From Candidatus Multivorans sp. (lineage in GTDB: Bacteria; Acidobacteriota; Thermoanaerobaculia; Multivoradales; Multivoraceae): DNA of 64,000 nucleotides. A model generated the notes under the pieces. It was not told where the DNA came from and searched no databases. It saw only the letters and a list, made by a program, of their open reading frames with translations. Shown in pieces: positions 1,636 through 17,266 of the stretch; the stretch's first letter is position 1; the number at the start of each line of letters is the position of its first letter. The DNA is taken from the NCBI GenBank assembly GCA_965224025.1, contig OZ245033.1, positions 4,448,001 to 4,512,000 of the forward strand, read 5' to 3'. The position numbers and the translations under genes are program-made.

Positions 1636-2040
1636 ATGAACCCCGCAAACGGGAAACTCCGCAACTACCTCCTGCTGGCGCTCGCCGCCGCCCTACTCGC
1701 CCTCGGCTGCAGCGCCTACGGCGCGCCCGCCCTGCCCGCCGCCGTCGGTTCCTGGAACATGTCGATCGAGACGCCGCTCGGCACCCAGACTCCGACCATC
1801 AACGTGACCGGCGACGCCAGCGGTCTGATGGTGGCGATGGCCTCCCCCGACGGCTCAGTGGACGCCACCGACGTCACCTTTGGCGAAGACGGCGCCCTGG
1901 GTTTCACGGTAGTTGTCCCCGCCGGAGGGCAGGACCTCACGCTGGTCTTCAGCGGCATGGTCGAAGGCGACTCGCTGAACGGCACCTTCGCCACCGACTT
2001 CGGCGACATGACCGCCACCGCGACGCGCGCCGTCGAGTAG
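1636..2040 (+). CDS. Secreted/lipoprotein, small beta-rich hypothetical protein
   Basis: SD GAAAGG, hydrophobic leader ending in lipobox-like LALGC, then a GSWNMSIETP...FSGMVEGDSLNGT beta-strand pattern. Confidence 0.75.
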   Translation: MNPANGKLRNYLLLALAAALLALGCSAYGAPALPAAVGSWNMSIETPLGTQTPTINVTGDASGLMVAMASPDGSVDATDVTFGEDGALGFTVVVPAGGQDLTLVFSGMVEGDSLNGTFATDFGDMTATATRAVE

Positions 2041-2087
2041 CCGAAGACCGCCTCGCACGCCGGCTGATTCAGTCGGCCCAGCCGGTC

Positions 2088-2117
2088 CGGGCCGGGATCT
2101 GACGCGATCCCGGCCCG
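2088..2117 (+). terminator. GC-rich stem-loop downstream of the lipoprotein gene
   Basis: CGGGCCGGGATC-tgacgc-GATCCCGGCCCG, a 12-bp perfect stem. There is no U-tract, so terminator function is uncertain. Confidence 0.35.
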
Positions 2118-2156
2118 CGCTGTGCTGGGCGCCCAGCGCCGCCTGAACGGGTCCGC

Positions 2157-2186
2157 TTGACAAATAGGACCGATTCAATCCACTAT
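2157..2186 (+). promoter_or_regulatory. Putative sigma70 promoter of the porin operon
   Basis: TTGACA (2157-2162), 18-nt spacer, CACTAT (2181-2186), lying in an AT-rich patch 8 nt before ATG 2195. Confidence 0.5.
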
Positions 2187-2194
2187 CCCCGGAG

Positions 2195-3559
2195 ATGAAA
2201 CGGCAACGCTTGCTCGTCGCGGCTCTGACGATGGCGCTCGGAACCGGGGCGGCAATAGCCCAGGAATCGACCGAAGACCGCCTCGACGTACTGGAACAGC
2301 AGGTCGCCGAACTGCGCCGGGCCATCGCGGAACTGGCCGCAGAGCCAGGGGACGAGCGCGTCGCCGAACTGGAAAGACGGATCGAGGTCCTGGCCGAAGA
2401 GATCGAGGAACTGACGCTCGGCGAGGCGGCGACGGGGAACGCCGAGGACGCGGAAAGCCTCTACGGCCTGGGCATCGCGGCCTCCAAGGTCTACCGCGTG
2501 GACGAAGGACTGTCGATCGGCGGCTACGGAGAGATGGTCTTCGAGAGCTACGCGAGCGAACGCGAGAGCGGCGAGCCGACCGGCTTCGGCGACGTGTTCG
2601 ACTTCCTGCGCGGGGTCTTCTACGTCGGCTACAAGTTCGACGACCGGTGGGTCTTCAACTCGGAGATCGAGTTCGAGCACGCCTCTACAGCCAAGTCCGG
2701 CAGCGCCTCCGTCGAGTTCGCGTACGTCGACTACCTTTGGAAGCCGCAGTTGAACTTCCGCACGGGGATCCTGCTGCTCCCGATGGGCTGGCTCAACGAA
2801 CTGCACGAGCCGACCTTGTTCCCGAGCGCGGAGCGTCCCTACGTAGAGCAGGTCCTGATCCCGAGTACCTGGCGCGAGAACGGCGCCGGCATCTTCGGCG
2901 ACGTGGGCCCCTTTGCCTACCGGAGCTACGTCGTCAACGGCCTGAAGGGCGCCAGCTTCACTTCGAATGGCCTGCGCGGCGGACGGCAGAAGGGCGCGAA
3001 GGCCCAGGCCGAGGACTTCGCCTGGACCGGACGGCTCGACTACACGGCGACCCCCGGCCTGATCCTCGGCGTTTCGGCCTACGTCGGGAACTCGGGCCAG
3101 GGACTGCTCGATCCCATGGGCCGCACGATCGACGCCCGCACCGAGATCCTCGACTTCCACTTCGACTGGAGCCACCGCGGTGTCCGGCTGCGCGGGCTGT
3201 GGGCGAAGGCCGAGGTCGGAGACGCTGCCCGTTTGAATGCCGCACTTGGCATTGCCGGCCGCGATTCGATCGGCGAACGGCTCGAAGGCCACTATCTCGA
3301 ACTGGCCTACGACGTTCTTGCGCACCGCGGCGGGCGCGCCTCCCTGTCGCCCTTCGTTCGGGTCGAGTCCATCGACACACAGGTCCGCGTTCCGGCCGGG
3401 TTCGAGAGGGACCCGATCTTCGACCGGGAGATCCTGACCTGGGGCGCCGCCTGGCAGCCCATCGACCGGCTCGTCTTCAAGGTCGGTTACCAAGACTGGA
3501 CCAACTCCGGCGGCACCGGGTTCGACGAGTGGAACCTGGCCATGGGCTACCTCTTCTAG
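2195..3559 (+). CDS. Outer-membrane porin (OprO/P-like) with N-terminal coiled coil
   Basis: Signal peptide, coiled coil, SIGGYGE, YVGYKFDDRWVFNSEIEFEH, VEFAYVDY, NELHEPT and C-terminal GYLF. Confidence 0.8.
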   Translation: MKRQRLLVAALTMALGTGAAIAQESTEDRLDVLEQQVAELRRAIAELAAEPGDERVAELERRIEVLAEEIEELTLGEAATGNAEDAESLYGLGIAASKVYRVDEGLSIGGYGEMVFESYASERESGEPTGFGDVFDFLRGVFYVGYKFDDRWVFNSEIEFEHASTAKSGSASVEFAYVDYLWKPQLNFRTGILLLPMGWLNELHEPTLFPSAERPYVEQVLIPSTWRENGAGIFGDVGPFAYRSYVVNGLKGASFTSNGLRGGRQKGAKAQAEDFAWTGRLDYTATPGLILGVSAYVGNSGQGLLDPMGRTIDARTEILDFHFDWSHRGVRLRGLWAKAEVGDAARLNAALGIAGRDSIGERLEGHYLELAYDVLAHRGGRASLSPFVRVESIDTQVRVPAGFERDPIFDREILTWGAAWQPIDRLVFKVGYQDWTNSGGTGFDEWNLAMGYLF

Positions 3560-3567
3560 CCAACGCC

Positions 3568-4221
3568 GTGTCCCGGGGAAGGAAACCCGGGCGGCGCGAT
3601 CCGCGCCGCCCGCGAACCGCTCCGGGGACCCGTCATCGGGTCCTCGGACGGCACATCGCCGCGCGGACGGCGGCGCTGACGGTTCTGCTCGCGCTGACTT
3701 CGGGCGCGCCGCAACCGGCAGGCGCCAAGGCCTTCCTGACCCGAAGCGAAGCCCTCGAACTCGCGTTCCCGGACTGCCGCATCATCCGGCAGACCCGCTA
3801 CCTCAAACCAGACCAGCGTCGGCGCGCGGCGGAACTGGCCGGCGCCGAAGTCGAGTCGCGACTGATCGTTCAGTACGCCGCGCTCTGCAACGGCGAGCCT
3901 GCCGGCGCCGCCTACTTCGACGTCCACCGCGTCCGCACCCTCGCCGAGACCCTCATGGTCGTCGTCGACGCCGAGGGCCACATCAAGACGCTCGAAATCA
4001 TGTCGTTCCTCGAGCCCGAGGAGTACATCCCCCGCCGCACCTGGTACGACCAGTTCCTCAGGCATCGGCTCGACGCGAGACTCCGGCTCAAACGGTCAAT
4101 CCACGCGGTTACCGGCGCCACGCTGACAGCGCGCGCCACGACGGATGCGGTCCGCAGGATCCTGGCGCTTGACCAGGTGCTCCGGGAAGCCCCGTCCCAA
4201 CCCGAAGGGCTGGTGCCGTGA
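3568..4221 (+). CDS. FMN-binding (flavinylated) exported protein
   Basis: C-terminal part of ORF 2647..4221. Has a signal peptide, FLEPEEY and the flavinylation-type motif AVTGATLT. Start uncertain (GTG 3568). Confidence 0.75.
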   Translation: MSRGRKPGRRDPRRPRTAPGTRHRVLGRHIAARTAALTVLLALTSGAPQPAGAKAFLTRSEALELAFPDCRIIRQTRYLKPDQRRRAAELAGAEVESRLIVQYAALCNGEPAGAAYFDVHRVRTLAETLMVVVDAEGHIKTLEIMSFLEPEEYIPRRTWYDQFLRHRLDARLRLKRSIHAVTGATLTARATTDAVRRILALDQVLREAPSQPEGLVP

Positions 4222-4691
4222 ACCGCCTCGCCGCCTGGACCGTTCACGCCTCGACCTTGCTGGTCGGCGGTACTGGGCTCGTGTACGCCTGGATGCGCTA
4301 CTTCACGGCGCCGGCCGACGAGTTCGCGATCGTCGGGCACCCCTGGCAGCCGCACGTCCAGCACCTGCACCTCTGGACGGCGCCCCTGCTCGTCTTTGGC
4401 ATCGGCCTGATCTGGCGCGACCACGTCTGGCGGCACTACCGGCATCGTGTCCGCGACCGCCGCCGCAGCGGCCTGTCGCTGCTGCTGGGGTGTGCCCCGA
4501 TGATCGTGTCCGGCTACCTGATCCAGACCGCCGTCGGCGAGCTCTGGCGGCAGACCTGGATCGCGATGCACCTGATCGCGTCAGCGCTGTTCCTTGTCGG
4601 CTACGGCGCCCACATGGTCAAACCGCTTCGCGCCAGTGTCCGCGGGTCTTCTGACCCGCGGAAAGGAACGCGCCGCGAAGCGGCGACCTAA
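4218..4691 (+). CDS. His-rich 4-TM membrane protein (DUF4405/cytochrome b-like)
   Basis: GTGA overlap with the upstream gene; four hydrophobic helices with His residues (TVH, HLH, DHVW, MHL, GAH). Confidence 0.65.
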   Translation: MNRLAAWTVHASTLLVGGTGLVYAWMRYFTAPADEFAIVGHPWQPHVQHLHLWTAPLLVFGIGLIWRDHVWRHYRHRVRDRRRSGLSLLLGCAPMIVSGYLIQTAVGELWRQTWIAMHLIASALFLVGYGAHMVKPLRASVRGSSDPRKGTRREAAT

Positions 4692-5242
4692 CCGGCCGGT
4701 CCGGTATCGCTTACGCGGCCGTCCTCGACGGCCGCGTGCTCACCCTGCTCGCCGTGGCCGCCGCCCGGCGGCCCGGGGTGCGGCGTGTTCGTCGTGATCA
4801 GGATGACCGAGATCAACATGCCGGCGATGCCGACCCAGAGCAGCGGACTCACCTCGAGCTGGCCCCGGCCGCGGTACAGCGTGTAGAGCGCGGTCACGGT
4901 GACCGCGCCGCCGAACACGACCGGCATCACCGCGTAGGGAATCCTCGCCCCGCCGCTGAACATGGCGAGCGTCAGCGAGAGCGCGCCGAGAGCACCCAGG
5001 GTACCCGCGTAGAGGCCCCAGACGCCGGACGGTCCGGTGAGTTCGAAGCTGTCGCCCATGACTCTCATGCCGATCAGACCGCCGACAATCGCGATCACCA
5101 GGTAGGCGATGCCGATGCCGACGTAGGGCTTGAAGGGAGACATCGTCTCGTCCACCAGGCGCGCCCGGCCCAGGACCGGGCCATAGAGCCCCCAGCACAG
5201 CGCGGTACCGAGGGCGAACAGGAAGGGGAGGAAGTTCTTCAT
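4688..5242 (-). CDS. Small multi-pass membrane protein (EamA/DMT-like)
   Basis: Five hydrophobic segments; motifs LCWGLYGP, PFKPYVGIG and VMPVVFGGA. Confidence 0.7.
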   Translation of the reverse strand: MKNFLPFLFALGTALCWGLYGPVLGRARLVDETMSPFKPYVGIGIAYLVIAIVGGLIGMRVMGDSFELTGPSGVWGLYAGTLGALGALSLTLAMFSGGARIPYAVMPVVFGGAVTVTALYTLYRGRGQLEVSPLLWVGIAGMLISVILITTNTPHPGPPGGGHGEQGEHAAVEDGRVSDTGPAG

Positions 5243-5342
5243 CGATGTCTCCAGGCGCGCTGTCAGGCTGAGAACGCCATTGCAGGCGCCAGCGCGAACG
5301 CCGCTTGAAAGGTCGTCTGATCTCAGATTCCGTCGCCGGAGG

Positions 5343-6857
5343 TTATCCCCTGAGCAGGGACACGGCAGCCGTCCGGCCCGGCAGACCGGTCACGCCGCCG
5401 CCTGGATGGCAACCGGCGCCGCCGAGCCACAACCCCTCGACCGGCAGGGCGTCGCCGGCCCACGCGCCCGCCGTGGGCCGCAGCCACAGGCTCTGGCCGG
5501 GGTTCATCTCGCCGTGGTGAAGCCCGCCCTCCGTGGCGCTGTACTCCGACTCGTAGTCCGCCGGAAGCAGCAAAGCGTGTTCCCGGATCAGGGCGCCGAC
5601 GCCCGGCGCCCAACGCTCAAGCTCGACCAGCATCCGGTCGACGAGTTCCGGACCGGCCGAAGCCCAGCCACCCTCGACTTCGAACGGGAGGTGGTGCGCC
5701 GTCGCCAACAGCAGGTGCCGCCCGGCGGGCGCCAGCGACGGGTCGAGCGTCGTCGGCAGCGCCGCTTCGATCCAGGGACGCTCCGGCAAGCGGCCGTACT
5801 TCGCCGCGTCGGCGGCGCGCTCGATTTCGTCCGGATCCCGCGCAAGCACGATCCGCCCGGTGAGAGCCGGCCGTTCCAGACCCTGAAACGGGGGCAGATC
5901 GTCGAGAGACAGCGCCAGCCGCGCCGCGGCGCCGCGATACTTCACCTTGAGCAGCCGGCGGACGAAGCGGGGTTCGAGTTGCGGCGCGCCGACCAGGTCG
6001 AGGAAGGTGGCGGTGGGGGTCGCGGTCGAGATCACGGCCCCGGCTTCGATCCGCTCACCGTCGGCCAATTGCACACCCGCGACTCGTCCCTTCTCCACCA
6101 GGATGCGGGAAACGACGGCGCCCGTCCGGAGCGCGGCGCCTGAGGCTGCGGCCGAAGCCGAGAGCGCCCCTGCCAGCCCCGCCGCGCCGCCCCGGGCCCG
6201 CACCACGGGCGCCAGGCGGTCGGACCCACCCAGAGCGCAGTGGTAGAGCAGCGGCCAGCCGGTACCGTTCGCGCGCGGTCCCATGCCGGTCGCCGGGAGC
6301 GCCAGACCGCACAGTCCCGCGGCCAGCGCCCGGTTCTCGAACCACTCGCGCAACAGCTCGTCGAGCGGCGCGGACACGAAGCGCAGCAGTTCCGGAGCGA
6401 TCAGCAGGCGTCCCATGTCGGCAAGTTCCGGCGGCCTGCACAGCAGCGGTTCGAGCGCCGCCGCCCGCTCCGCGAGTTCCCCGACGAACCGCGGCCAGGC
6501 GGCAGCGTCGCGGGAACTGGCCGCGGCGAGTCCCTCCGCGGTTCGGTCGACTTCAGGCCAGAGCACGACGGCGCGGGAGTCCCCGACCGCCGCGACCGCG
6601 GCCACCGCCGGCGCCTCGATCAGTTCCAGGCCGAAGCGTTGCAGTTCGAGTTCGTCGATCAGGGAGCGGCGGAACATCCCCAGGTCGTTAGTGCCTACGT
6701 CGACGCGGTGGCCGGGGATCAGCTCCCGGGTCGAGGCCAGCCCGCCGAGTTCGCTCTGCGCCTCGAGCAGCACGACTTCCCGCCCGGAGCGTGCGAGCAG
6801 AGCCGCGGCTACGAGACCATTGTGGCCCCCGCCGACGATCGCGACGCGGTCGCTCAC
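5343..6857 (-). CDS. Phytoene-desaturase-family FAD-dependent oxidoreductase (copy B)
   Basis: IVGGGHNGLVAAALL dinucleotide-binding motif, DAAKYG, GGLHHGEM and GAGCHPGGGVTGLPG. GTG start overlaps the upstream stop. Confidence 0.88.
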   Translation of the reverse strand: MSDRVAIVGGGHNGLVAAALLARSGREVVLLEAQSELGGLASTRELIPGHRVDVGTNDLGMFRRSLIDELELQRFGLELIEAPAVAAVAAVGDSRAVVLWPEVDRTAEGLAAASSRDAAAWPRFVGELAERAAALEPLLCRPPELADMGRLLIAPELLRFVSAPLDELLREWFENRALAAGLCGLALPATGMGPRANGTGWPLLYHCALGGSDRLAPVVRARGGAAGLAGALSASAAASGAALRTGAVVSRILVEKGRVAGVQLADGERIEAGAVISTATPTATFLDLVGAPQLEPRFVRRLLKVKYRGAAARLALSLDDLPPFQGLERPALTGRIVLARDPDEIERAADAAKYGRLPERPWIEAALPTTLDPSLAPAGRHLLLATAHHLPFEVEGGWASAGPELVDRMLVELERWAPGVGALIREHALLLPADYESEYSATEGGLHHGEMNPGQSLWLRPTAGAWAGDALPVEGLWLGGAGCHPGGGVTGLPGRTAAVSLLRG

Positions 6858-8575
6858 GGCGCCGCCGCTCCGTTCCCGCCGCGCCGCAGGTCGTCGAGGA
6901 TCCTGAGCGCCGCCAGCCGTCCCGGGCCCCCGGAGATGCCGCCGCCGAACTGCGTCGACGAGCCGCACAGGTAGTAGCCCGGCAACGGCGTCCGGAACGA
7001 CGCGGCAGCCGGATCGGGACGCAGCAGGAAGAGCTGCGACAGCCGCAACTCGCCGTGGAAGATATTGCCGCCGGGAATGCCCGCGATCGACTCGATGTCC
7101 GGCGGCACCCGCACCTGCCGGTGCAGCACCTGGTCCTCGATGCCCGGGGCGTACTCGGCCAGGGTCCGCACCACGGCATCGCCGAACGCGTCCCGCTGCT
7201 CGTCCCAGGTGGTTCCCGCCAGCTCGTAGGGCGCGTACTGCACGAAGCAGGACACCACGCACTTCCCCGGCGGCGCCATGTCCGGGTCGAGGACCGAGGG
7301 GATGATCATGTCGATGAACGGACGCTCCGAGAAGCCCCCGTACTTCGCGTCGTCGTAGGCGCGATCGATGTAGTCGAGACCGGGAGCGATCGTGATCCCG
7401 CCCGCGAGATGGGGGCCCGGCTCCGGCATGCACTCGAAACGAGGCAGCCCGTCGAGCGCCAGGTTGACCTTGCCGGCGCAGCCGCTGCTCTGCCACCGGG
7501 CGGCGCGGGCGAGAAGCCCCTCCCCCACTCCGCCGGGAACGTCGTCGGCTTCGAGCAACCTAGCCAGACTGACCTGGGGCGGCGCGGACGAGACGACGAC
7601 ATCGGCGGTCAGTTCGTCGCCGTTCGCAAGCACGACGCCACAGGCGCGGCCGTCCCGGGACAGCACACGGGCCACCGGGCAGTCCGTTCGGATCTCGGCG
7701 CCGTAGCCGCGCGCGGCCGACGCGATCGCGGCCGCGACGCCGCCGGTGCCGCCCTTCTGGAAACCCCACTCCCGGTACACGCCGTCGATCTCGCCCATGT
7801 AGTGGTGCAGCAGCACGTAGGCCGAGCCCGGCGTACGCGGCGACAGGAAGGACCCGATGATGCTCGAGGAGGAGAGCGCGGCCTTGAGCACGTCGCACTC
7901 GAACCACTGGTCCAGGAAGTCCGCCGAGCTCATCGTCAGCATCTGCAGGAAGGTGCGCATCCGGGCGGTCGGCAGGTCGAGGAAGTAGCGGGCTATGTCG
8001 GCCACTTCCTCGGACACCTCCGAGGCGATCTGCTCCGGCTCCTCGTCGACGTGGCCCGCGACCGCCGCCGCGAGTTCGTCGGGCGCGGCCCGCTGCAGCT
8101 TGAACATCAGGTGGCCCAGGCGCCGCATTTCGAGCTTGTACTCCGACAGGGCCTCGGCGTCGCGCCGCGAGTGGCGCGCGATGTTGTGGTACGTCCGCTG
8201 CGGGTCCGCCTCGCGCAGCAGGCAGTCGCCCCCCGGCAGCGGGTTGAGCGTGCTCGCCGTCGGCACCAGGAAGAGCCCGTGCCGGACCAGATCGAGTTCG
8301 TGGATGACCTCCGGCCGCAGCAGCGACACGAGGTACGAGAACACGCTGTACCGGAAGCCCGGAAACGCCTCCTCGCTCAGCGTGGCGCCGCCGATAACCT
8401 GCGCCCGCTCCAGCACCACGACATCCAGGCCGGCCCGGGCCAGGTAGGCCGCGGACACCAGACCGTTGTGACCGGCGCCGACGACGATCGCGTCGAAGCG
8501 GCCGCCGCGCCGGGCCGGATCGGATGCGGGCGAGACGCCCGCGTTCCCAGGTCCGGAACCGTGGCCGGCGCTCAC
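6854..8575 (-). CDS. Phytoene-desaturase-family FAD-dependent oxidoreductase (copy A)
   Basis: IVVGAGHNGLVSAAYLA, SYLVSLLRP, YVLLHHYMGE and GGNIFHGEL. GTGA overlap at 8572-8575. Confidence 0.9.
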   Translation of the reverse strand: MSAGHGSGPGNAGVSPASDPARRGGRFDAIVVGAGHNGLVSAAYLARAGLDVVVLERAQVIGGATLSEEAFPGFRYSVFSYLVSLLRPEVIHELDLVRHGLFLVPTASTLNPLPGGDCLLREADPQRTYHNIARHSRRDAEALSEYKLEMRRLGHLMFKLQRAAPDELAAAVAGHVDEEPEQIASEVSEEVADIARYFLDLPTARMRTFLQMLTMSSADFLDQWFECDVLKAALSSSSIIGSFLSPRTPGSAYVLLHHYMGEIDGVYREWGFQKGGTGGVAAAIASAARGYGAEIRTDCPVARVLSRDGRACGVVLANGDELTADVVVSSAPPQVSLARLLEADDVPGGVGEGLLARAARWQSSGCAGKVNLALDGLPRFECMPEPGPHLAGGITIAPGLDYIDRAYDDAKYGGFSERPFIDMIIPSVLDPDMAPPGKCVVSCFVQYAPYELAGTTWDEQRDAFGDAVVRTLAEYAPGIEDQVLHRQVRVPPDIESIAGIPGGNIFHGELRLSQLFLLRPDPAAASFRTPLPGYYLCGSSTQFGGGISGGPGRLAALRILDDLRRGGNGAAAP

Positions 8576-10089
8576 GAAGCGTCTCCCAGGGCGGCACCCA
8601 CCGCCGTCTTGCGCGCCGGGTTGAAGAACGGCCGTCTGGCGACCTGGGCACGGGCCCGGCGCCGTCCGTAGCCGACCGCGACCTCGACTTCCAGGGCGGT
8701 CCCGAGCGTCGCCACATCCGCCTGCACCGTCGCCAGGCCGATGTACTTCTTGAGCAGCGGCGAGAAGAACCGCGTCGTGCATTGCCCCACTTGCGAGCCC
8801 CCGGGCGTGAACACGGGCGTCGGTTCCCGCGAAGCCGGGTGACCGACCACCTGCGGCCGCAGATCGATCTCGGACCACAGCCGCTCCAGTTCGAACCAGT
8901 CGACTTCGAGCCCGACCATCGCCCAGGCCGGTCCCCGGTCGCGCTCCCGTTCCAGCGCCCGTCGGCCAACGAAGTCGGCCTGCTTGTCGAGCTTCACCGT
9001 GAAGCCCAGGCCCGCCTCGGCCGGAGTGACCTTGAGCACCTCGATCTCGGCGTGCAACGCCGACACGTAGTCGACGTCGATCAGCACCAGGCCCGCCTCG
9101 ACCCGCGCCATGTCGAGCGCGAGCAGTCCCGCCGGCCGCAGGCCGTGATCCGCCCCGGCGGCGGCGAGTGCATCCCAGAGGACCTCCGCGTGCTCCGCCG
9201 CGATCCAGAACTCGTAACCGAGGTCGCCGGTGTAGCCGGTGCGCGTCACGGTCACCGGAACGCCCCCGTCCTCGCCGGCCACGGCACCGAGCTCGGCGCC
9301 GGCGAGGTCGAAGTAGCGCATCCCGGCGAAGTCGACGCCCTGAACCGCCGCCTCGGCGATCGCCCGCGCCCGCGGTCCCTGGAGCGCGAGCACTCCCAGG
9401 TCGGCAGAGACATCCCGCACTTCGACCTCCATGCCGAGGCCGCAGTCCTCGAACCAGCGCAGGCACGGTTCCGCGGCGCTGACCAGGAACCGCTCGCGCT
9501 CCAGGCGCTGCACGTTGCCGTCCTGCAGCAGATGACCGTCCTCGTTGCACCACGACGTGTACATGACCCGGCCGACACGGCACTTCGTGAAGTCGCGCGT
9601 CATCGCCCGGTCGAGCACGCGTTCCGCGTCCGATCCGACCATCTCGTACTTGAACAGCGGCGACACGTCGATCAGGGCAGCCGTGTTGCGGACCGCCCAG
9701 TAGTCGCGATCCGGCGTCGGCTCGTAGTTCAGGGCGCACGTGTAGCCGGACCAGTCCCGCCAGGCGCCGCTCTCGCACAGGGCCTCCGTTCGACGGTGGA
9801 ACGGCGTCCGGAGCGGCTCCAGCAGCCGCAGGCCGTTGCGGCGGAACGGACGCTCGCCACCGCCGAAGCCGCCGTCAGGCAGCCACCGGTAGCCCTGCGT
9901 GTCCGGGTTGCGGCCAACCAGTCCCTCCGCCTCCAACACACCGAGCAGCCGGTGCGCCGTCGAAGGATGGAGTCCGTGCGCCGCGGCGAGGTCCGTCAGT
10001 CGATGCTCCGGCTGCTCCGCCGTGAACGACCGGTACAGCGACAGCGCCCGCTGAATGGCTTGCGTTCCCTGCGGAGCCCGGCGCGCCAT
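8572..10089 (-). CDS. IclR-type HTH fused to GcvT-family aminomethyltransferase
   Basis: N-terminal IclR HTH (GTQAIQRAL...LTDLAAAHGLHPSTAHRLLGVLEAEGLV) followed by GcvT motifs LRTPFH, DVSPLFKY, TRTGYTGDLGYE, ARVEAG and PFFNP. Confidence 0.88.
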   Translation of the reverse strand: MARRAPQGTQAIQRALSLYRSFTAEQPEHRLTDLAAAHGLHPSTAHRLLGVLEAEGLVGRNPDTQGYRWLPDGGFGGGERPFRRNGLRLLEPLRTPFHRRTEALCESGAWRDWSGYTCALNYEPTPDRDYWAVRNTAALIDVSPLFKYEMVGSDAERVLDRAMTRDFTKCRVGRVMYTSWCNEDGHLLQDGNVQRLERERFLVSAAEPCLRWFEDCGLGMEVEVRDVSADLGVLALQGPRARAIAEAAVQGVDFAGMRYFDLAGAELGAVAGEDGGVPVTVTRTGYTGDLGYEFWIAAEHAEVLWDALAAAGADHGLRPAGLLALDMARVEAGLVLIDVDYVSALHAEIEVLKVTPAEAGLGFTVKLDKQADFVGRRALERERDRGPAWAMVGLEVDWFELERLWSEIDLRPQVVGHPASREPTPVFTPGGSQVGQCTTRFFSPLLKKYIGLATVQADVATLGTALEVEVAVGYGRRRARAQVARRPFFNPARKTAVGAALGDAS

Positions 10090-10100
10090 GGGAAAGATGA

Positions 10101-10115
10101 TCTCACATCGTGGGA
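10101..10115. promoter_or_regulatory. Putative IclR-type operator
   Basis: TCTCAC-ATC-GTGGGA, a 15-bp near-palindrome 11 nt upstream of the HTH-GcvT start codon. Confidence 0.5.
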
Positions 10116-10176
10116 CGGCAAACGGCCACGACATCGAGTGCGAACGCACCTTCGGGCGGTCCGGTCGGCTACCGGT

Positions 10177-12945
10177 CTACCGGCCCCAGCGGTAGTGCAG
10201 GCGCGCGTAGTAGTAGCCGCCGCTCAGACCCCAGGGCGTGAACTGGCTGTAGGGAAGGCCGAACCGCGCGGCGAACAGGTCCATGCGGTCCGAGAACGTA
10301 TCGAACACGTTCTGGCCGCCGACGGAGAGCGTCGTGTCGCGCACCAGCGGGAAGCTGACCTCCAGGTCGAAGACGTAGCGGCCTCCGAGGACCGGCGCGT
10401 CGGCGCGGCGCACGGAGCGGGCGTCCAGGTGGTCGACCCACGATCCGAAATAGTGCAGGCGTCCGAGCAGGTCGACCGGTCCGATGCCCTGGTTGACGGC
10501 CAGGTTCCAGCGCGTCTTCGGCACGCCCCGTTCCAGGGCGAGCACGTCGCCGGGGCCGAGCAGGTCCGAGTCCTTCGTCACTTCCGTCTCCGTGTGATTC
10601 AGCGCCAGGCTGAACACCGTGTTGCCGCCCAACGCCGGCGGCGTCCAGGTCGAGACGATGTCGATCCCCTGGGTCCGCGACGAGAAGTCGTTGATGAAGA
10701 ACCGGAACGAGGACAGGGTGCGCGCCGAGGTAATCCCCTCCGACAGCAGCAGCGCGCGCTCTTCCGCGGCCAGCGTGAAGAACTGCGACAGGGCAAGCCG
10801 CCGGTCGACGTCGATGTGGAAGTAGTCCGCCGTCAACGTGAACGGCCCGGTGTCGACCACCAAACCCGCCGTCGCGTTGGTCGAGGTCTCGGGTTCGAGG
10901 GCTTGGCCGCCCCGGAACTGCGCGGCGCGGAAGGTCGACGGCACCGTGGCGCTGTCGACCAGATCGAGCGTTTCCGGGTTGATCGTCGACTGCACGTTGA
11001 ACACGTTCTGCTGGCCGGGCGTCGGAGCGCGGAAGCCGCTGCTGACGCCGCCGCGCACGGAAACCGTGTCGGCCAGGGCGTAGCGGGCCGAAAGCTTTCC
11101 GTTCGTCGTGTCGCCGAAGACATCGAAGTGCTCGAACCGGAGCGCGCCGCCGAGCGTCCAGCGGCCGTCCGGATCCCGTAACTCCAGGTCGCCGTAGACC
11201 GCCGCGTTGGCGCGGTTCCAGGTCCCGGCCGTGTAATCGGGGAACCCCGGAAAACCGTTGGAGCCGGAAACGAACCCCTGCGCGGCGTACGGTCCGACCT
11301 GCCACGACGGCACTTGGCCGGAGCGAATCGTGAAGCGCTCGTCACGCCACTCGGCGCCGCCGGCCACATGAAGGCTCTCGGTGACGGCGTAGGAGACGTC
11401 GAAGTTCAGGTTGACCTCGGCCTGCCGGTAGACACCCGGGTCGAAGTCGCGGGGACTCGCCGGACCCAGCGAGGCGTTCACTGTGTTGAACAGGAAGAAG
11501 TCCGCCTGGTGAGAGCCGTAGCTGGCGCTGGCGTCCCAGGTGAAACCGCCTTGCGTGGTCCGGCGCAGGCCGGCCACCGCTGATGTATCGGTCATCACGC
11601 CGCTGAAGTAGGGGGTGAAACCGCCCGGCGCGATCTCCTGGAAGGAGAAGCAGTTCGGGTCGGCGAACACCTGCGCCAGCGCGTGCTGATCGGGCCGGTC
11701 GTCGGTGATCGTCACGGTCGGGCAACCCGCCGATCCATCGCGCACGCCGTCCTGCGCGTCGAGCACGTCACCGATGAGCAGCGTGCGACCGCCGTCCAGG
11801 CTGAAGATGTTGGCGCGCGTATTGGGATTCCGGTAGTAGAAGCCCTGCGTCGCCGTCTTGTCGGCGTAGTTGGCATGCCCGTAGATCTGGATGCCGTTCG
11901 CGAGCAGCTTGCCGAAGTTGCCGAACAGCTTCAGGTCGTCCTCGTACTCCGAGTCGCCCCAGACCTGCGCCGGGTCGAGGACGTGCGTGTTGCCGGCGGC
12001 GATCAGCGCCGCCGCGTCGGCGCGCTGCACGCTGCGGCTGGTCGGGTCGGCGTTGCCGTACTCCATGCTCAGATGCGCGAACCCGTTCTCCCCCAGCGGC
12101 AGGCCGATGTCGCCGGCGATCGTGTACGCCTCGCCGTCGCCCGCGCCGTAGACGCCGCTCTTCACCTCCAGGCTGCCGCCCGACGGGTCGTCCTTGAGCA
12201 GGAAGTTCATCACGCCCGCGATCGCGTCGGAGCCGTACTGCGCCGAGGCGCCGTCGCGCAGCACCTCGACCTGGCGCAGCGCGGTCGCGGGGATTGTCGA
12301 GATGTCCGGCCCCTGGGTGCCGTCGGTGACGCCTCCGAACCAGACCAGAATCGCCGAGCGATGCCGGCGCTTGCCGTTCACGAGTACCAGCGTGTGGTCG
12401 TGAGCCAGGTTGCGCAGACTGGCCGGCCGCACCAGCGACGCGGCGCCGCTGATCGGATGGGTCGCGACGTTGAACGAGGGCACCAGGTTCCGCAACAGGT
12501 AGTCGAGCGAGCTGGCGCCCTGGCTGACGACATCCTCGACCGGGATGGCGTCGATCGGAACGGAGGACTCGGTCACCGACCGCGGCCGCGAGCGGCTGCC
12601 GACCACCACCAATTGCTCGTCGAACTCCGCGACCAGCTCCACCGCGAGGGTCGTCGGCGCCCCGGCCTCGACCGCCACGCCGCGGCGCACGACCTCGTGG
12701 AAGCCGGACAGCGTCAGCTTCACGTCGTACAGGCCCGGCAGGAGACCGTCGATAGAGAACACGCCCTCGCTGTCGGTGACGACGACTTCGACCGGTCCCC
12801 AGGACTCCACGCTCCGCGCCTCCACGGTGACGCCGGGCAGCGCGACACCGGCAGCCGCCACGATGCCTTCGATGCCGGCTTCCCTGGCCTGGACGGCGCC
12901 CGGCGCCGCAAGCGCGGTCAACAAGGCAATGCGGAGGCCTCTCAC
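10177..12945 (-). CDS. TonB-dependent receptor with N-terminal carboxypeptidase-regulatory-like domain
   Basis: Signal peptide from GTG 12945 (start uncertain), VVVGSR, plug motifs LVLVNGKRRH and VEVLRDGASAQYGSDAIAGVMN, SSGFRAP, C-terminal YYARLHYRW. Confidence 0.9.
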   Translation of the reverse strand: MRGLRIALLTALAAPGAVQAREAGIEGIVAAAGVALPGVTVEARSVESWGPVEVVVTDSEGVFSIDGLLPGLYDVKLTLSGFHEVVRRGVAVEAGAPTTLAVELVAEFDEQLVVVGSRSRPRSVTESSVPIDAIPVEDVVSQGASSLDYLLRNLVPSFNVATHPISGAASLVRPASLRNLAHDHTLVLVNGKRRHRSAILVWFGGVTDGTQGPDISTIPATALRQVEVLRDGASAQYGSDAIAGVMNFLLKDDPSGGSLEVKSGVYGAGDGEAYTIAGDIGLPLGENGFAHLSMEYGNADPTSRSVQRADAAALIAAGNTHVLDPAQVWGDSEYEDDLKLFGNFGKLLANGIQIYGHANYADKTATQGFYYRNPNTRANIFSLDGGRTLLIGDVLDAQDGVRDGSAGCPTVTITDDRPDQHALAQVFADPNCFSFQEIAPGGFTPYFSGVMTDTSAVAGLRRTTQGGFTWDASASYGSHQADFFLFNTVNASLGPASPRDFDPGVYRQAEVNLNFDVSYAVTESLHVAGGAEWRDERFTIRSGQVPSWQVGPYAAQGFVSGSNGFPGFPDYTAGTWNRANAAVYGDLELRDPDGRWTLGGALRFEHFDVFGDTTNGKLSARYALADTVSVRGGVSSGFRAPTPGQQNVFNVQSTINPETLDLVDSATVPSTFRAAQFRGGQALEPETSTNATAGLVVDTGPFTLTADYFHIDVDRRLALSQFFTLAAEERALLLSEGITSARTLSSFRFFINDFSSRTQGIDIVSTWTPPALGGNTVFSLALNHTETEVTKDSDLLGPGDVLALERGVPKTRWNLAVNQGIGPVDLLGRLHYFGSWVDHLDARSVRRADAPVLGGRYVFDLEVSFPLVRDTTLSVGGQNVFDTFSDRMDLFAARFGLPYSQFTPWGLSGGYYYARLHYRWGR

Positions 12946-13223
12946 GGCCCAGTCGACGCGACGCGCGTCATGGTCGCGTGCTTGGCGCCCGGCCTTCCCG
13001 AGGGAACGGTGGGCACGGCGCAGAGGGGCTGGCGCGGCACGGCCGGATGATGGCACATCGACGGCGCCAGGATTCGTCTCATGATCCCTTGCAAGGCGCC
13101 CCGGCCGCTGGACGACCGCGCCTCCAGCCGGGGCCCTTCGCCACCCGCGAGAGTGAGGCGCCCGTCGGGCCGGTAGGTCCACGCGCGCCGGGCCCGGGCC
13201 TGAGGCCATGGAGCGGATTCCGC

Positions 13224-14558
13224 TTATCTCGCCGCCTGCACCGTGAACGGCACCCGAAACCCTGGACAACCCGCGTCGCTATACCAGGCCGTGCCCTCCT
13301 GCACCAAGTCGAGGACGAGGACGTAGGCGCCCGGACCTTCGGGAGGGCGAATACGCATGGCCACCGACACCTCTTCCCCCGGGGCCACAACCCGGGGCAA
13401 CCGGCTCCGCAATCCGTCCAGATCGACTACGGCGCCGCGCCGATTGAGCCAGTGGTAACTCGCGTGATCGGGCGCGTCGTTGCACTCGCTCGAAAGCCGA
13501 CGCCAGCTCCTGTTCCTGAACGTCACTTCCACTTGGAATTCGACACCAGCCTCCGCCTCGGATGGGCCTTCGAACGCGACCCACTGCACGTCGTGCGCGC
13601 CACGCACCTCGTCGACCCACTCAACGCCGGGAGGCCTGGCCGGGAGCGGGCGCCGCTGACCGGCTGCGCCCCGCTCAGCGTAGATCACGAGGTGCTTCGC
13701 GAACAGATCGAGATCCCGCTCTCGCAGAACGTCGTCCACCCGCGCGTAGAGTTCGTAGGTAAGCCGTCCGAAATGGCGCCTGATGTCCGTGTCGAGATCG
13801 GGTGATCCCGGATATGCCTCCAGCCCGGCCACCGTGCCACGAATCGTGAGGCCGTAGCCGGCGAAGAAGGCCTCGAAGTCCCCGACCGCGTAGCGGTGTT
13901 CGATCGGTTCTTCCACGAGCGCGGCAACCGGCGCCGGTTCGAGAGAAGCAGGCGACCGCTCGCCCGTCGCGGAGGCAATGCGGGCGCGGATGCCGTCCAG
14001 GTCTCGCGCGAGCCAGTCGAAGTCGAGTTCTCTGCTCCAGCTTCCTTTCCAGTCCCCACGCGGCTCGATCAAGAGGAACCTCTTCGACCACGCGCCGAGG
14101 CGACTGACGAGGGTCTGCGGATCGGTCAGGTGATGGAAGGCGTCGAACATCGTGACAAGGTCGACTGGCTCAGCCGGCGCGTAGCGCTCGACATCCGCGA
14201 CCTCGAACGTCGCGTTGGCGAGACCCAGCGCCTCCGCATGCTCCTTCGCCCGGGCAATCCCGGCGTCGCTGTGGTCCACGCCCACGAAGGCGACGTCCGG
14301 GAGCCTCCGCGCCAGCTCGCACGTGATCTCTCCGGGGCCGCATCCCAGATCCAGAACCGACCGTGACGCCGCGACATATGGCTCGCAAAGGTCCGCGAAG
14401 CGCCGAATCGTCACATAGCCGGGATAGGCGTCACGAAACGGGTCGAACCGCTGGGCCCCGAAAAGGGCATCGTGAAAGGCCCGGTCGCGGTCGGGCGACC
14501 AGCGCTGCCAGAAGGTTCGTGCGCGACGCAGGATTCGGCGTAGGAGTCGCGTGAGCAT
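13224..14558 (-). CDS. Class I SAM-dependent methyltransferase with C-terminal Ig-like domain
   Basis: VLDLGCGPGE, GVDHS and FHHL. The C-terminal FRNRSWRRL...SYHW...PGAYVLVLDLVQEGTAWY resembles an NBR1/Wzt-C-type Ig fold. Confidence 0.8.
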   Translation of the reverse strand: MLTRLLRRILRRARTFWQRWSPDRDRAFHDALFGAQRFDPFRDAYPGYVTIRRFADLCEPYVAASRSVLDLGCGPGEITCELARRLPDVAFVGVDHSDAGIARAKEHAEALGLANATFEVADVERYAPAEPVDLVTMFDAFHHLTDPQTLVSRLGAWSKRFLLIEPRGDWKGSWSRELDFDWLARDLDGIRARIASATGERSPASLEPAPVAALVEEPIEHRYAVGDFEAFFAGYGLTIRGTVAGLEAYPGSPDLDTDIRRHFGRLTYELYARVDDVLRERDLDLFAKHLVIYAERGAAGQRRPLPARPPGVEWVDEVRGAHDVQWVAFEGPSEAEAGVEFQVEVTFRNRSWRRLSSECNDAPDHASYHWLNRRGAVVDLDGLRSRLPRVVAPGEEVSVAMRIRPPEGPGAYVLVLDLVQEGTAWYSDAGCPGFRVPFTVQAAR

Positions 14559-14630
14559 GGTTGCGGCGCAACGGTAGCCTAGCTGACTTCCCGTTCCGGC
14601 TCGCCGCGGAATTCTCTGTAGGATGCCTCC

Positions 14631-15782
14631 ATGAACCCCCGTAAGGCGCCCCGCCCGCTAGAGGGACGGCTGTACACCGACCCGGCCATCTTCGACGAGG
14701 AGATGGAGCGCATCTTCTCGCGCATGTGGGTGTGCGGGGGGCGGCTCGAGGAGCTGGACGAACCGGGGCGCTTCGTGACCCGCGAGGTCGGCGGCGAATC
14801 GATCGTCGCCGTGCGGACCGCGGCTGCCAGTGGCGGCGCCGGGGCAACCGGCAACGGAAGCGCGCCCGGAACAGCCGCCGGCGTCGGCTCTGCCCAGGGA
14901 TTGGCCGCCTTCTTCAACGTCTGCCGTCACCGGGGGTCGCGGGTCGTCGATGAGTGCGCGGGCCGGGCCAAGGTTTTCCAGTGCCCTTACCACGCCTGGA
15001 CCTACGGTCTCGACGGGCGCCTGGTCGGCGCGCCGCACATGGGCCGCGACTTCGACGCCAAGGGCGCCGGCCTGGTGCCGGTGCGCATCGAGGCGCTGAA
15101 CGGCTTCTTCTACCTGTCCCTGCCGGTCGACGGGCCCCCGCTCGCCGAGGTGACCGCCGACCTGCCCGACATCTCTCGCTTCACGCTCGACCGGCTGGTC
15201 CGCGGCGACCGCCACGAGTACGAGGCGCAGGCGAACTGGAAGATCCTGTGCGAGAACTACAACGAGTGCTACCACTGCGCGGTCGTCCACCCGGAGCTGA
15301 ACCGGGTGTCGGACTACCGCAACGGCGGCAACCTGGAAACCGGCCGCTTCTTCGTCGGCGGTCCGATGACCTTGAATGAGGGCTGCGACACGATGACGGC
15401 GACCGGGCGCAGCGACCGCCCCGACCTGCCCGCCATCGAACTCCCCGACCGGACCTCGGTCCAGTACTACCACGTGTACCCCAACCTGCTGATCAGCCTG
15501 CACCGGGACTACGTGGTGACCCACACGCTGTGGCCGATCGAGGCGGGCCGCACCAGGATCGTCTGCGAGTGGCTGTTCGACCCCGACGTGGCCGCGGCCC
15601 CCGGTTTCGACCCCAGCGACGCCGTGGACTTCTGGCATGTCGTCAACAGACAGGACTGGAACGTCTGCGCGCGCACGCAGTTGGGCGTCGCGTCCCGCGG
15701 CTACCTCCCCACCGCCTACGAAGAGAGTGAAGCCTGCGTTCAGGTCTTCGACGGCTGGTACCTGGACCAGATGGGCCTGTGA
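14631..15782 (+). CDS. Rieske non-heme iron oxygenase alpha subunit (GbcA/choline monooxygenase-like)
   Basis: Rieske motif CRHRG...CPYHAWTY, mononuclear iron site NWKILCENYNECYHC...VH, and QDWNVC. Confidence 0.92.
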   Translation: MNPRKAPRPLEGRLYTDPAIFDEEMERIFSRMWVCGGRLEELDEPGRFVTREVGGESIVAVRTAAASGGAGATGNGSAPGTAAGVGSAQGLAAFFNVCRHRGSRVVDECAGRAKVFQCPYHAWTYGLDGRLVGAPHMGRDFDAKGAGLVPVRIEALNGFFYLSLPVDGPPLAEVTADLPDISRFTLDRLVRGDRHEYEAQANWKILCENYNECYHCAVVHPELNRVSDYRNGGNLETGRFFVGGPMTLNEGCDTMTATGRSDRPDLPAIELPDRTSVQYYHVYPNLLISLHRDYVVTHTLWPIEAGRTRIVCEWLFDPDVAAAPGFDPSDAVDFWHVVNRQDWNVCARTQLGVASRGYLPTAYEESEACVQVFDGWYLDQMGL

Positions 15783-15841: not shown

Positions 15842-17266
15842 ATGTGGCTCCGTGAACACGCGCTGATCCTCGTCCTGTTCGCCCTCTACACGGGCGTACT
15901 GGTTCACCACGCGCTGATCGGCCAGCGCCGGACGCGCGATCTCGCCGATTTCCTGGTCGGCGGCCGCTCGCTCGGCGGCATCATCCTGGGCGTCTCATTC
16001 TTCGCCACCTACGCCAGCACGAACAGCTTCATCGGTTTCGCCGGCAGGGCCTACGCCTCGGGCATCGCCTGGCTCCTGATCGTCCCCACCGCAGTCATCC
16101 TGTCCTTCGTCGCCTGGGCGTGGCTGGCGCCGCGGCTGCGCGGCGTCACCGAGACGCTCGGCTCGGTAACGATTCCGGACTACATCGGCTTCCGCTTCAA
16201 CAGCCGGCCGGCCCGCTTCGTCGCCGCCCTGATCGTCATCTTCTCGAGCTTCCTGTACATGACCGCGGTGTTCAAGGGCATCGGCTCGCTGTTGGTCGAG
16301 CTGCTGGATCTGAGCTACGGCTTGTCGCTCTTCGTCGTCGTGCTGATCGTCTGCCTCTACACGATGATCGGCGGCTTCCATTCCGTGGCGCGGACCGACT
16401 TCCTCCAGGGCATGCTGATGACGATGGCGGCGGTGCTGATGTTCTTCCTCATCACCCGCGCCGCCGGCGGCATCGGCCGTCTCGCCGACCTGGCGCAGAT
16501 CGGCGACGGCTCGCTCGTCCGTTGGGACACGGCGCAACCCCTCGGGATGCTGATCGGCGTCGTCTTCGCCTCGACCGTCAAGCTGGTCGTCGAACCGCGC
16601 CAGCTCTCCCGTTTCTACGCCCTGGAGACCGAGAGCGCCGCGAAGAGCGGCCTGGTCGTGTCGACCCTGAGCTTCCTGATCGTGTTCAGCCTGCTGGCGC
16701 CGCTCGGGCTCTACGCCCACTTCGTCGTCGGCCAGGGCGTCGCCGACACGGACCAGGTCATTCCCATGATGCTGAGCGACCCGGCCATCTTCCCGCCGGT
16801 GGTCCAGGCCCTCCTGTTCCTGGCCCTGGTTTCGGCGGCCATGTCCTCGCTCGACAGCGTCCTTCTGGTCATGGCCTCCACAGCGCAGCGCGACCTGCTC
16901 GGCCTGCTCGTCCCCGCCGACGACCGCCACGCCATCCGCAACACCCGCATCTGCGTCGTGCTCTTTGCCGCCATCACCGCGATTCTCGCGATCGACCCGC
17001 CCGGCGGCATCGTCGAGTTGACGTCCTTCTCAGGCGCCCTCTACGCCGCCTGCTTCCTGCCCTCCCTTGCCCTGGGCCTTACCTGGCGCCGCGGCAACGG
17101 CGCGGCGGCTCTGTGGTCCTTCGCCGCCGGCGGCGGGACCCTGGGGCTCTGGATGCTGCTCGACATCCAGGGCATGCACGCGGTGTTCCCGGCGATGGCG
17201 ATTTCGTTCGCGGCCTACTGCGTCGCCGCCTTGGCGGCGCCGGAGGCGAAGGGGTTGTTTGGGTAA
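15842..17266 (+). CDS. Sodium:solute symporter (SSS) family transporter
   Basis: DFLVGGRSLG, STNSFIG, TIPDY, GGFHSVARTD and SAAMSSLDS; about 13 TM segments. Confidence 0.92.
   Translation: MWLREHALILVLFALYTGVLVHHALIGQRRTRDLADFLVGGRSLGGIILGVSFFATYASTNSFIGFAGRAYASGIAWLLIVPTAVILSFVAWAWLAPRLRGVTETLGSVTIPDYIGFRFNSRPARFVAALIVIFSSFLYMTAVFKGIGSLLVELLDLSYGLSLFVVVLIVCLYTMIGGFHSVARTDFLQGMLMTMAAVLMFFLITRAAGGIGRLADLAQIGDGSLVRWDTAQPLGMLIGVVFASTVKLVVEPRQLSRFYALETESAAKSGLVVSTLSFLIVFSLLAPLGLYAHFVVGQGVADTDQVIPMMLSDPAIFPPVVQALLFLALVSAAMSSLDSVLLVMASTAQRDLLGLLVPADDRHAIRNTRICVVLFAAITAILAIDPPGGIVELTSFSGALYAACFLPSLALGLTWRRGNGAAALWSFAAGGGTLGLWMLLDIQGMHAVFPAMAISFAAYCVAALAAPEAKGLFG

Follow-up and report, generated by a model that had tools for sequence, protein, structure and literature searches.

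PutA, BirA and NadR are enzyme–regulator fusions, and RbkR is reportedly another, in which a DNA-binding domain and an enzyme fold share one chain. We know of no such fusion with an IclR helix–turn–helix (HTH) or a folate-binding domain. In Candidatus Multivorans, a sponge-dwelling genus, we observe a gene that joins an IclR-type winged HTH to a folate-binding domain of the aminomethyltransferase (AMT) family. It lies in a stretch of 64,000 nucleotides (nt; contig OZ245033.1, positions 4,448,001 to 4,512,000), hereafter the window. As in BzdR (accessible part of PMC3602430), RbkR, PutA, BirA and NadR, a DNA-binding domain and an enzyme fold stand together beside the operon to be controlled. 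The HTH classes and enzymes of those proteins are different ones, and the fusion differs also in that an unfused operon with its operator still exists. The fusion would work like an enzyme–repressor of the PutA, BirA and RbkR kind, and it is not a canonical IclR, GcvT or Tdm. We tentatively propose two roles for it at the locus, folate-linked trapping of one-carbon (C1) units and repression, with the enzyme's state standing in for the effector domain that was lost.

IclR regulators such as TtgV (2xro), TM0065 (1mkm) and PP_2609 (9e6a) share with the fusion the winged-HTH fold, and their 15–17 bp sites with a CAC-N3-GTG core resemble its candidate operator. The group-1 motif of the family is GKTYCRYW3RYGRAMC, and the commonest position of the operator centre is −22 (accessible part of PMC8222616), near the −19 of the site described here. 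In contrast to these regulators, the fusion has no IclR_C effector and tetramerization domain, its connecting helix is decayed, and its C-terminal partner is a folate enzyme of 400 residues. The main text of the IclR survey (PMC8222616) contains neither "fused" nor "fusion", and five supplements give GcvT only as a regulated gene, in two regulogs (file 4). Literature searches outside subscription papers found no description of an IclR-HTH::AMT fusion or of the genes of this lineage, and no mention of such a fusion was found in the accessible part of P2TF.

The enzyme part resembles the C-terminal domain of the trimethylamine N-oxide (TMAO) demethylase Tdm, which binds tetrahydrofolate (THF) and turns formaldehyde into methylene-THF (accessible part of PMC13619132). 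Unlike in Tdm, the N-terminal partner is a DNA-binding domain and not a demethylase, and the oxidising partners are separate genes. The same gene set occurs as a module of an unfused AMT and two CrtO-like flavoproteins, with or without a Rieske oxygenase and a transporter, but only in the family of the fusion does the AMT carry an HTH.

Architecture and enzyme domain

Pfam assigns residues 11–61 of the fusion protein to HTH_IclR (PF09339, 44.8 bits against a cut-off of 22), 108–363 to GCV_T and 418–489 to GCV_T_C, and finds no IclR_C effector domain (PF01614) in the protein or in its genome. These matches and the single frame of 505 residues (Table 1) bear out the preliminary description, which had seen an IclR-like HTH joined in frame to an intact AMT domain in place of the effector domain. 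DNA-binding and enzyme domains are thus found in one conserved chain, as in a trigger enzyme. AlphaFold models contain a winged HTH, a low-confidence linker and a complete T-protein fold. The best fold matches of the model of residues 1–95 are the IclR-family winged HTHs 3r4k, 9e6a and 2o0y (root-mean-square deviation 1.2–4.7). A homodimer prediction for residues 1–100 scored 0.27 against a mark of 0.42 and is used neither for nor against any reading.

The connecting helix that follows the wing is alignable but rich in Gly and Pro, with predicted local distance difference test (pLDDT) values below 50, so that the window protein departs from an IclR regulator at this point. This segment had been taken for a Gly-rich linker; we regard it instead as a decayed helix, since it aligns with the connecting helix of IclR proteins (GG..RRNGLR against GGRALRANNLR). 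The YRLG..helix pattern is retained in several distant fusions.

The nearest solved relative of the AMT domain is the THF-binding domain of Tdm (9q59/9q5a, E 7.8e-55), and Foldseek recovers the complete three-domain fold (1yx2, E 5e-35, template-modelling score 0.86 by target). Compared with the folate domains of Tdm, DMGO, DMGDH and sarcosine oxidase, the fusion has counterparts of the four named THF contacts of Tdm: R480, F582, F672 and K782 correspond to R165, F260, F363 and R493, F260 being assigned by motif and not by a printed alignment. Y177 is kept, and D190 and E293, which align with D96 and E195 of 1woo, are present in 20/20 fusions. In the T-protein, N112 and R227 (1woo numbering) have a catalytic role. 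They are not retained in the fusion, where they align with S204/A205 and L325, and Tdm lacks them as well.

The AMT domain is not GcvT, since it scores below the cut-offs (TIGR00528, 166.6 against 235.85; NF001567, 204 against 300) and a separate GcvT-like gene is found elsewhere in the genome. Its match to the Tdm equivalog of NCBIfam reaches 268 bits against a cut-off of 1100 and covers only Tdm 388–760, without the N-terminal Zn demethylase. No second close AMT of this kind was found in the genome, so the fusion probably still performs the enzymatic job of the pathway. The neighbours (a GbcA-like Rieske gene, MttB and transporters) suggest that the locus acts in N-demethylation. A sarcosine-oxidase-like cluster with a 1081-residue GcvT-domain subunit, located elsewhere in the genome (G000:C1:1906486-1911190), could act downstream in the pathway.

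Distribution and origin

HTH_IclR and GCV_T occur together in 36 of 120 listed protein clusters (the query counted), 28 of them close and 8 at about 50% identity. The match starts at residue 1 in 34/37 genome loci, with 73–91% identity and titles that include Candidatus Multivorans and Thermoanaerobaculia. For 401 genomes of the phylum, the full-length matches among those listed are the 10 of the genus of the fusion; a further 497 matches, outside the list, are weaker. A search of 401 genomes of the class gave a strong match in 117, and matches that include the HTH only in Multivoraceae (the genus and genomes G704, G724, G680 and G480); both tallies include one unpublished genome, G024. A metagenome scan returned mostly unfused AMTs, and a profile of the fusion HTH matched only L037 and L041 among loci L035–L127. 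In a representative library, the best 150 matches contain one fused representative (P0082), and P0134 and P0139 carry unrelated extensions. Two region searches that used the N-terminus missed distant fusions.

A tree was built from 51 AMT domains, a selection out of 79 rows plus 5 further ones. All 16 fused rows group in a single clade (support 96/96), which also includes one unfused sequence. This clade is nested in a clade (100/100) with AMTs that adjoin IclR genes, apart from the seven unfused AMTs of its own class in the tree. At the level of sequence, a single origin of the fusion is demonstrated. The unfused member of the clade is locus L144 of genome G484, from the same family; it sits on a long branch and has probably lost its HTH secondarily.

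The unfused relatives lead to Chloroflexota. Among 301 genomes of the class with a Promineifilaceae record, an IclR related to the fusion is present in 15. A full-length IclR gene directly precedes an unfused AMT gene in 5/17 Chloroflexota loci and in metagenome locus L041, whose consecutive genes are mttB, IclR, AMT and a flavoprotein. Two flavoprotein genes come next in five extended loci, giving the Chloroflexota order mttB–IclR–AMT–two flavoproteins, a regulon that seems undescribed. The first 95 residues of the window protein are 40–47% identical to the Chloroflexota IclRs, and this likeness runs through the connecting helix up to the first motif of the AMT.

Because the IclR match reaches the start of the AMT and the fused AMTs share a clade with IclR-adjacent ones, the fusion most likely arose when an in-frame deletion removed the IclR effector domain together with the gap between the two genes. 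The donor was likely a Chloroflexota operon.

These operons have operators of their own. The palindromes of the unfused Chloroflexota operons read KTTCAC-AWT-RTGAAM, similar to the window site; a (G/T)TTCAY-N3-RTGAAC palindrome precedes the first gene in 5/5 extended operons; and in full-length relatives TTTCACAATGTGAAA-like palindromes adjoin the −10 elements. Upstream of the first operon gene of L167–L171, a third box (TGAAC/TGAAA) precedes the palindrome by about 5 nt, an arrangement similar to the three-box sites of IclR proteins in the accessible part of PMC8222616. Loci L160–L163 have tandem sites 20 nt apart.

The origin of enzyme–regulator fusions is argued mostly from engineered chimeras, as far as the accessible part of PMC3602430 goes. 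Few such fusions are known, and here a natural series can be compared: unfused IclR and AMT whose operator is strong, fusions in which the connecting helix is retained, others that have lost it, and one descendant without the HTH. The state before fusion (separate IclR, separate enzyme, strong operator) is extant in Chloroflexota, and the birth of a possible trigger enzyme could therefore be replayed step by step. As regulator, enzyme and DNA site still stand side by side in other bacteria, the case for self-repression by an enzyme can be tested.

Candidate operator and readings of the fusion

In genome G000, 342 of 3734 predicted genes have a leaderless-type promoter, with TAnnnT 6–10 nt ahead of the start codon and an enrichment of G at −14. 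At these spacings before the ATG, TAnnnT is found in 42–64 genes each, against 0–26 outside them. The fusion gene has a predicted promoter of this type with the variant GATCAT, and the candidate operator spans its positions −25 to −11. The palindrome that had been described 11 nt upstream of the ATG is present, though imperfect (5/6 pairs), and the genome holds no other site that fits the search pattern with ≤1 mismatch. TGTG at −17 to −14 is shared by 1/342 other leaderless-type promoters, so it is no general promoter feature, and TGTG(A/C)(G/C)ATCAT occurs three times in the genome, twice at the fusion locus. T at −17 and G at −16 are retained in 16/16 and 15/16 internal promoters, respectively, and each in 22 of the 23 TonB-receptor promoters (23 loci, including 16 of the 19 abutting relatives, located by a pattern with a fixed −10). 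The A/T bases of the left arm are retained in 13–14 of 16 loci with an own promoter, and only 1/159 fourfold sites holds A/T so well.

An operator matrix was made with a seed noticed partly by its likeness to the window motif; of 15 hits, 11 were used after removal of a coding one and three duplicates. With this matrix, the window site comes 21st among 3734 upstream regions (top 0.6%). The best match of the matrix lies at −18/−19 in all 13 palindrome-bearing relatives, at 4.6–11.7 bits. No IclR_C domain was found in 42 genomes of the genus (control: 8/14), so no canonical IclR competes for the palindrome.

The HTH itself is evidently under strong purifying selection. Among 35 close relatives, the ratio of nonsynonymous to synonymous substitutions (dN/dS, from pooled pairs that are not independent) is lowest in residues 40–58, at 0.053. 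The HTH as a whole has 0.187, the two AMT parts have 0.205 and 0.136, and the linker has 0.54. At the recognition helix, H41, P42, S43, T44, H46 and R47 are identical in 35/35 relatives. Of these, S43, T44, H46 and R47 align with S48, T49, Q51 and R52 of TtgV, which contact DNA (accessible part of PMC8222616). Separately, codons 5–8 (10066–10077) include conserved, unusual A/T-ending codons (GGA at codon 8 in 35/35, GCT at codon 5 in most), reflecting either a 5′ effect on translation or an internal DNA or RNA element.

In the mechanism we propose, an amine-demethylation operon had an IclR gene immediately upstream of its AMT gene, and deletion of the IclR effector domain would have produced a bifunctional enzyme–repressor. 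The AMT domain would still serve the two coupled flavoproteins and the Rieske oxygenase as a functioning folate partner, and the C1 unit of N-demethylation would be trapped as 5,10-methylene-THF, as in the C-terminal domain of the TMAO demethylase. The HTH would bind the CAC-RAT-GTG site, or the right half-site at the TonB-receptor promoter, and block the leaderless promoter. Repression may then be tuned by the enzyme domain, through its load of folate or C1 units, its oligomeric state or its capture by the flavoprotein partners; this is the weakest step of the proposal. In its most specific form, a one-component regulator that senses C1 load through a working folate enzyme and controls an undescribed amine-demethylation pathway, the proposal is doubtful. 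If the folate domain does tune DNA binding, the IclR HTH would gain a new sensor chemistry, THF or C1 load. Operator and ligand would then also help in the search for the substrate of the widespread, uncharacterised AMT–flavoprotein–Rieske module.

Several observations weigh against this proposal. The window site scores 4.6 bits, against 14–24 for the training sites, and 447 positions in the genome score as high. The published IclR consensus is reached at 13/17 by 147 of the 3734 upstream regions, and its core at 10/11 by 71. That the palindrome is the fusion's own operator, as had been suggested, gains from its resemblance to the independently found operator of the closest full-length IclRs and loses from its distribution: the conservation check finds it complete in 13/35 close relatives, missing in 22/35, and in none of four fusions from other genera (≤−4.4 bits). 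The left arm is absent in 3/16 relatives with an own promoter, in G427 and in 23/23 TonB-receptor promoters (≤1.3 bits). Constraint on the HTH is no weaker in the 19 abutting relatives (0.046) than in the 13 palindrome-bearing ones (0.054), and its recognition helix reads HPSTAHR, against NKxTAxR in full-length relatives. In the Multivorans genus the connecting helix is decayed, and the flexible linker offers no obvious allosteric path. No second target was found, the 12 near-match loci examined being coding or chance-like. The fusion may rely on half-sites or on an altered spacing since it lost the helix; otherwise the HTH has another role.

The regulon pattern with one mismatch has matches in 31/42 genomes of the genus; of 12 matches fetched outside the fusion, 11 are coding (FDDVR/FHDVR-type codons) and one lies near a small gene in one genome only. 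An exact second pattern occurs in 12/42 genomes at 13 places, 10 of which are the fusion-type site, and two TTCCACTTTGTGGGA loci are among the matches. An alternative palindrome centred 4 nt to the right (TGATG-TGC-CATCA, in the TonB-receptor promoters) was rejected as the main operator because it is not IclR-like and its left arm varies. On the minus strand, TTTCCCA over the start codon (10089–10095) is a possible third box 5 nt after the palindrome, present in 2/16 own-promoter loci only.

The constrained HTH and the operator-like site would equally suit an autorepressor blind to any ligand, in which the enzyme domain is only a dimerising carrier and simple negative feedback sets the level of the operon. 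The variable, low-confidence linker, an unlikely carrier of an allosteric signal, points the same way. Retention of the fusion across at least four genera at about 50% identity would be better explained by a sensing link than by plain feedback, and we consider the blind autorepressor rather unlikely.

A comparably low probability goes to the reading in which the HTH serves a different purpose (contact with a protein, a scaffold for dimers, tethering to DNA without specificity, or distant targets). The palindrome would then be a relic of the ancestral operator that is decaying and owes its partial retention to the overlap with the promoter. The patchy distribution of the site, an HTH just as constrained where the site is missing, the coincidence of the right arm with the extended −10 position and the failure to find a regulon all agree with a relic. 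It accords poorly with the retention of left-arm A/T bases far beyond fourfold sites, with the several loci in which unrelated upstream DNA joins just left of the palindrome arm, and with the invariant surface residues of the recognition helix.

The AMT domain could also be a dedicated sensor that binds folate or a pathway intermediate without catalysis, for which BzdR is a precedent (accessible part of PMC3602430). Q189 in 20/20 fusions, against D in 48/59 unfused relatives, would fit such a change of function, but Q189 is also found in two unfused proteins outside the fusion clade, and D190 and E293 are invariant. Furthermore, no second copy was found that could take over from the enzyme, coupling of the gene to the flavoprotein genes persists, and the descendant L144 has probably lost the HTH and stands as a plain AMT. 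We regard the dedicated sensor as improbable.

Some IclR-family proteins are activators, and the fusion might accordingly switch on a weak promoter marked by the non-consensus base at −12. This base is G or C, not T, in 16/16 internal promoters, where the aligning −10 pattern required it, against the enriched TAnnnT of the genome. However, the site covers −25 to −11, where polymerase binds, and G at −12 can also be explained as an operator base. We consider activation very improbable.

An assembly artefact or a recent chance deletion, for which no supporting point was found, can practically be dismissed, as the fusion occurs in independent genomes and contigs and is not specific to one assembly. 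The junction itself is crossed by contigs of two studies: a contig of run X1, possibly from the source sample, spans 9751–9931 with no differences, and a contig of run X3, from another study, covers 9297–10091.

Neighbouring genes and promoters

Table 1. Features of the fusion locus (window positions)
Feature	Position	Strand	Remarks
IclR-HTH::folate-binding AMT-family (Tdm C-terminal-like) fusion gene	8572..10089	−	505 residues, ATG at 10089, one open frame
IclR winged HTH, residues 9–70	9880..10065	−	Pfam and AlphaFold model
Linker, residues 71–93	9811..9879	−	Apparently decayed IclR connecting helix; pLDDT mostly <50; fusion point near residues 90–93
THF-binding AMT domain, residues 94–495	8605..9810	−	Sequence alignment and fold
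Candidate operator TCCCAC-GAT-GTGAGA	10101..10115	−	Centre 19 nt before ATG; degenerate form of relatives' operator
Putative −10 element GATCAT of leaderless promoter	10097..10102	−	7 nt before ATG; overlaps right arm of operator
Second TGTG(A/C)(G/C)ATCAT copy, TonB-receptor promoter	13047..13057	−	Right half-site only
Flavin adenine dinucleotide (FAD) oxidoreductase 1, CrtO/CrtI-like	6854..8575	−	Start overlaps stop of fusion
FAD oxidoreductase 2, paralogue of oxidoreductase 1	5343..6857	−	Start overlaps stop of oxidoreductase 1
Conserved 184-residue hydrophobic protein	4688..5242	−	No Pfam/NCBIfam match; downstream of both flavoproteins in 22 loci
TonB-dependent receptor	10177..12945	−	Upstream of fusion, same strand; open frame extends to 13269
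Inserted S-adenosylmethionine (SAM) methyltransferase gene	13224–14558		Between TonB receptor and Rieske gene
Rieske oxygenase alpha subunit, divergent	14631..15782	+	Closest to GbcA in NCBIfam, at 187 bits against a cut-off of 670; TAGGAT 6 nt before ATG
Sodium:solute symporter	15842..17266	+	Behind Rieske gene

The fusion gene had been called the first of a coupled operon. The coupling is evident from GTGA stop/start overlaps at 8575–8572 and 6857–6854; the first position is only partly right, as a TonB-receptor gene on the same strand ends 87 nt upstream. No terminator-like site was found between the two genes. The receptor stop precedes the fusion start by 0–12 nt in 19/35 close relatives, which lack the internal promoter. 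A sigma-70 scan of 4000–15000 gave no promoter-like site. FAD oxidoreductase 1 is presumably of the COG1233 type. Among 118 clustered loci, the flavoprotein cluster is present in 82 and the Rieske cluster in 48.

The interval between the Rieske gene and the fusion (window 10090–14630 and loci L001–L034) is a hot spot of rearrangement, with the TonB receptor intact, broken or deleted and other genes inserted. At least four types of junction before the fusion (0, 6 or 11–12 nt, or an own promoter) are intermixed on the tree. In the window, a short duplicated remnant of the Rieske 5′ end and promoter (13047–13110), with 80% identity over about 44 nt, stands ahead of the TonB receptor. It flanks the SAM methyltransferase insertion, and the usual receptor start codon at the remnant is out of frame.

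On the plus strand, 1636–4691 holds conserved neighbours that follow a PPK2 gene: a lipoprotein-like protein of 134 residues, a secreted or outer-membrane-like protein of 454 residues and two small proteins, mostly without a Pfam match.

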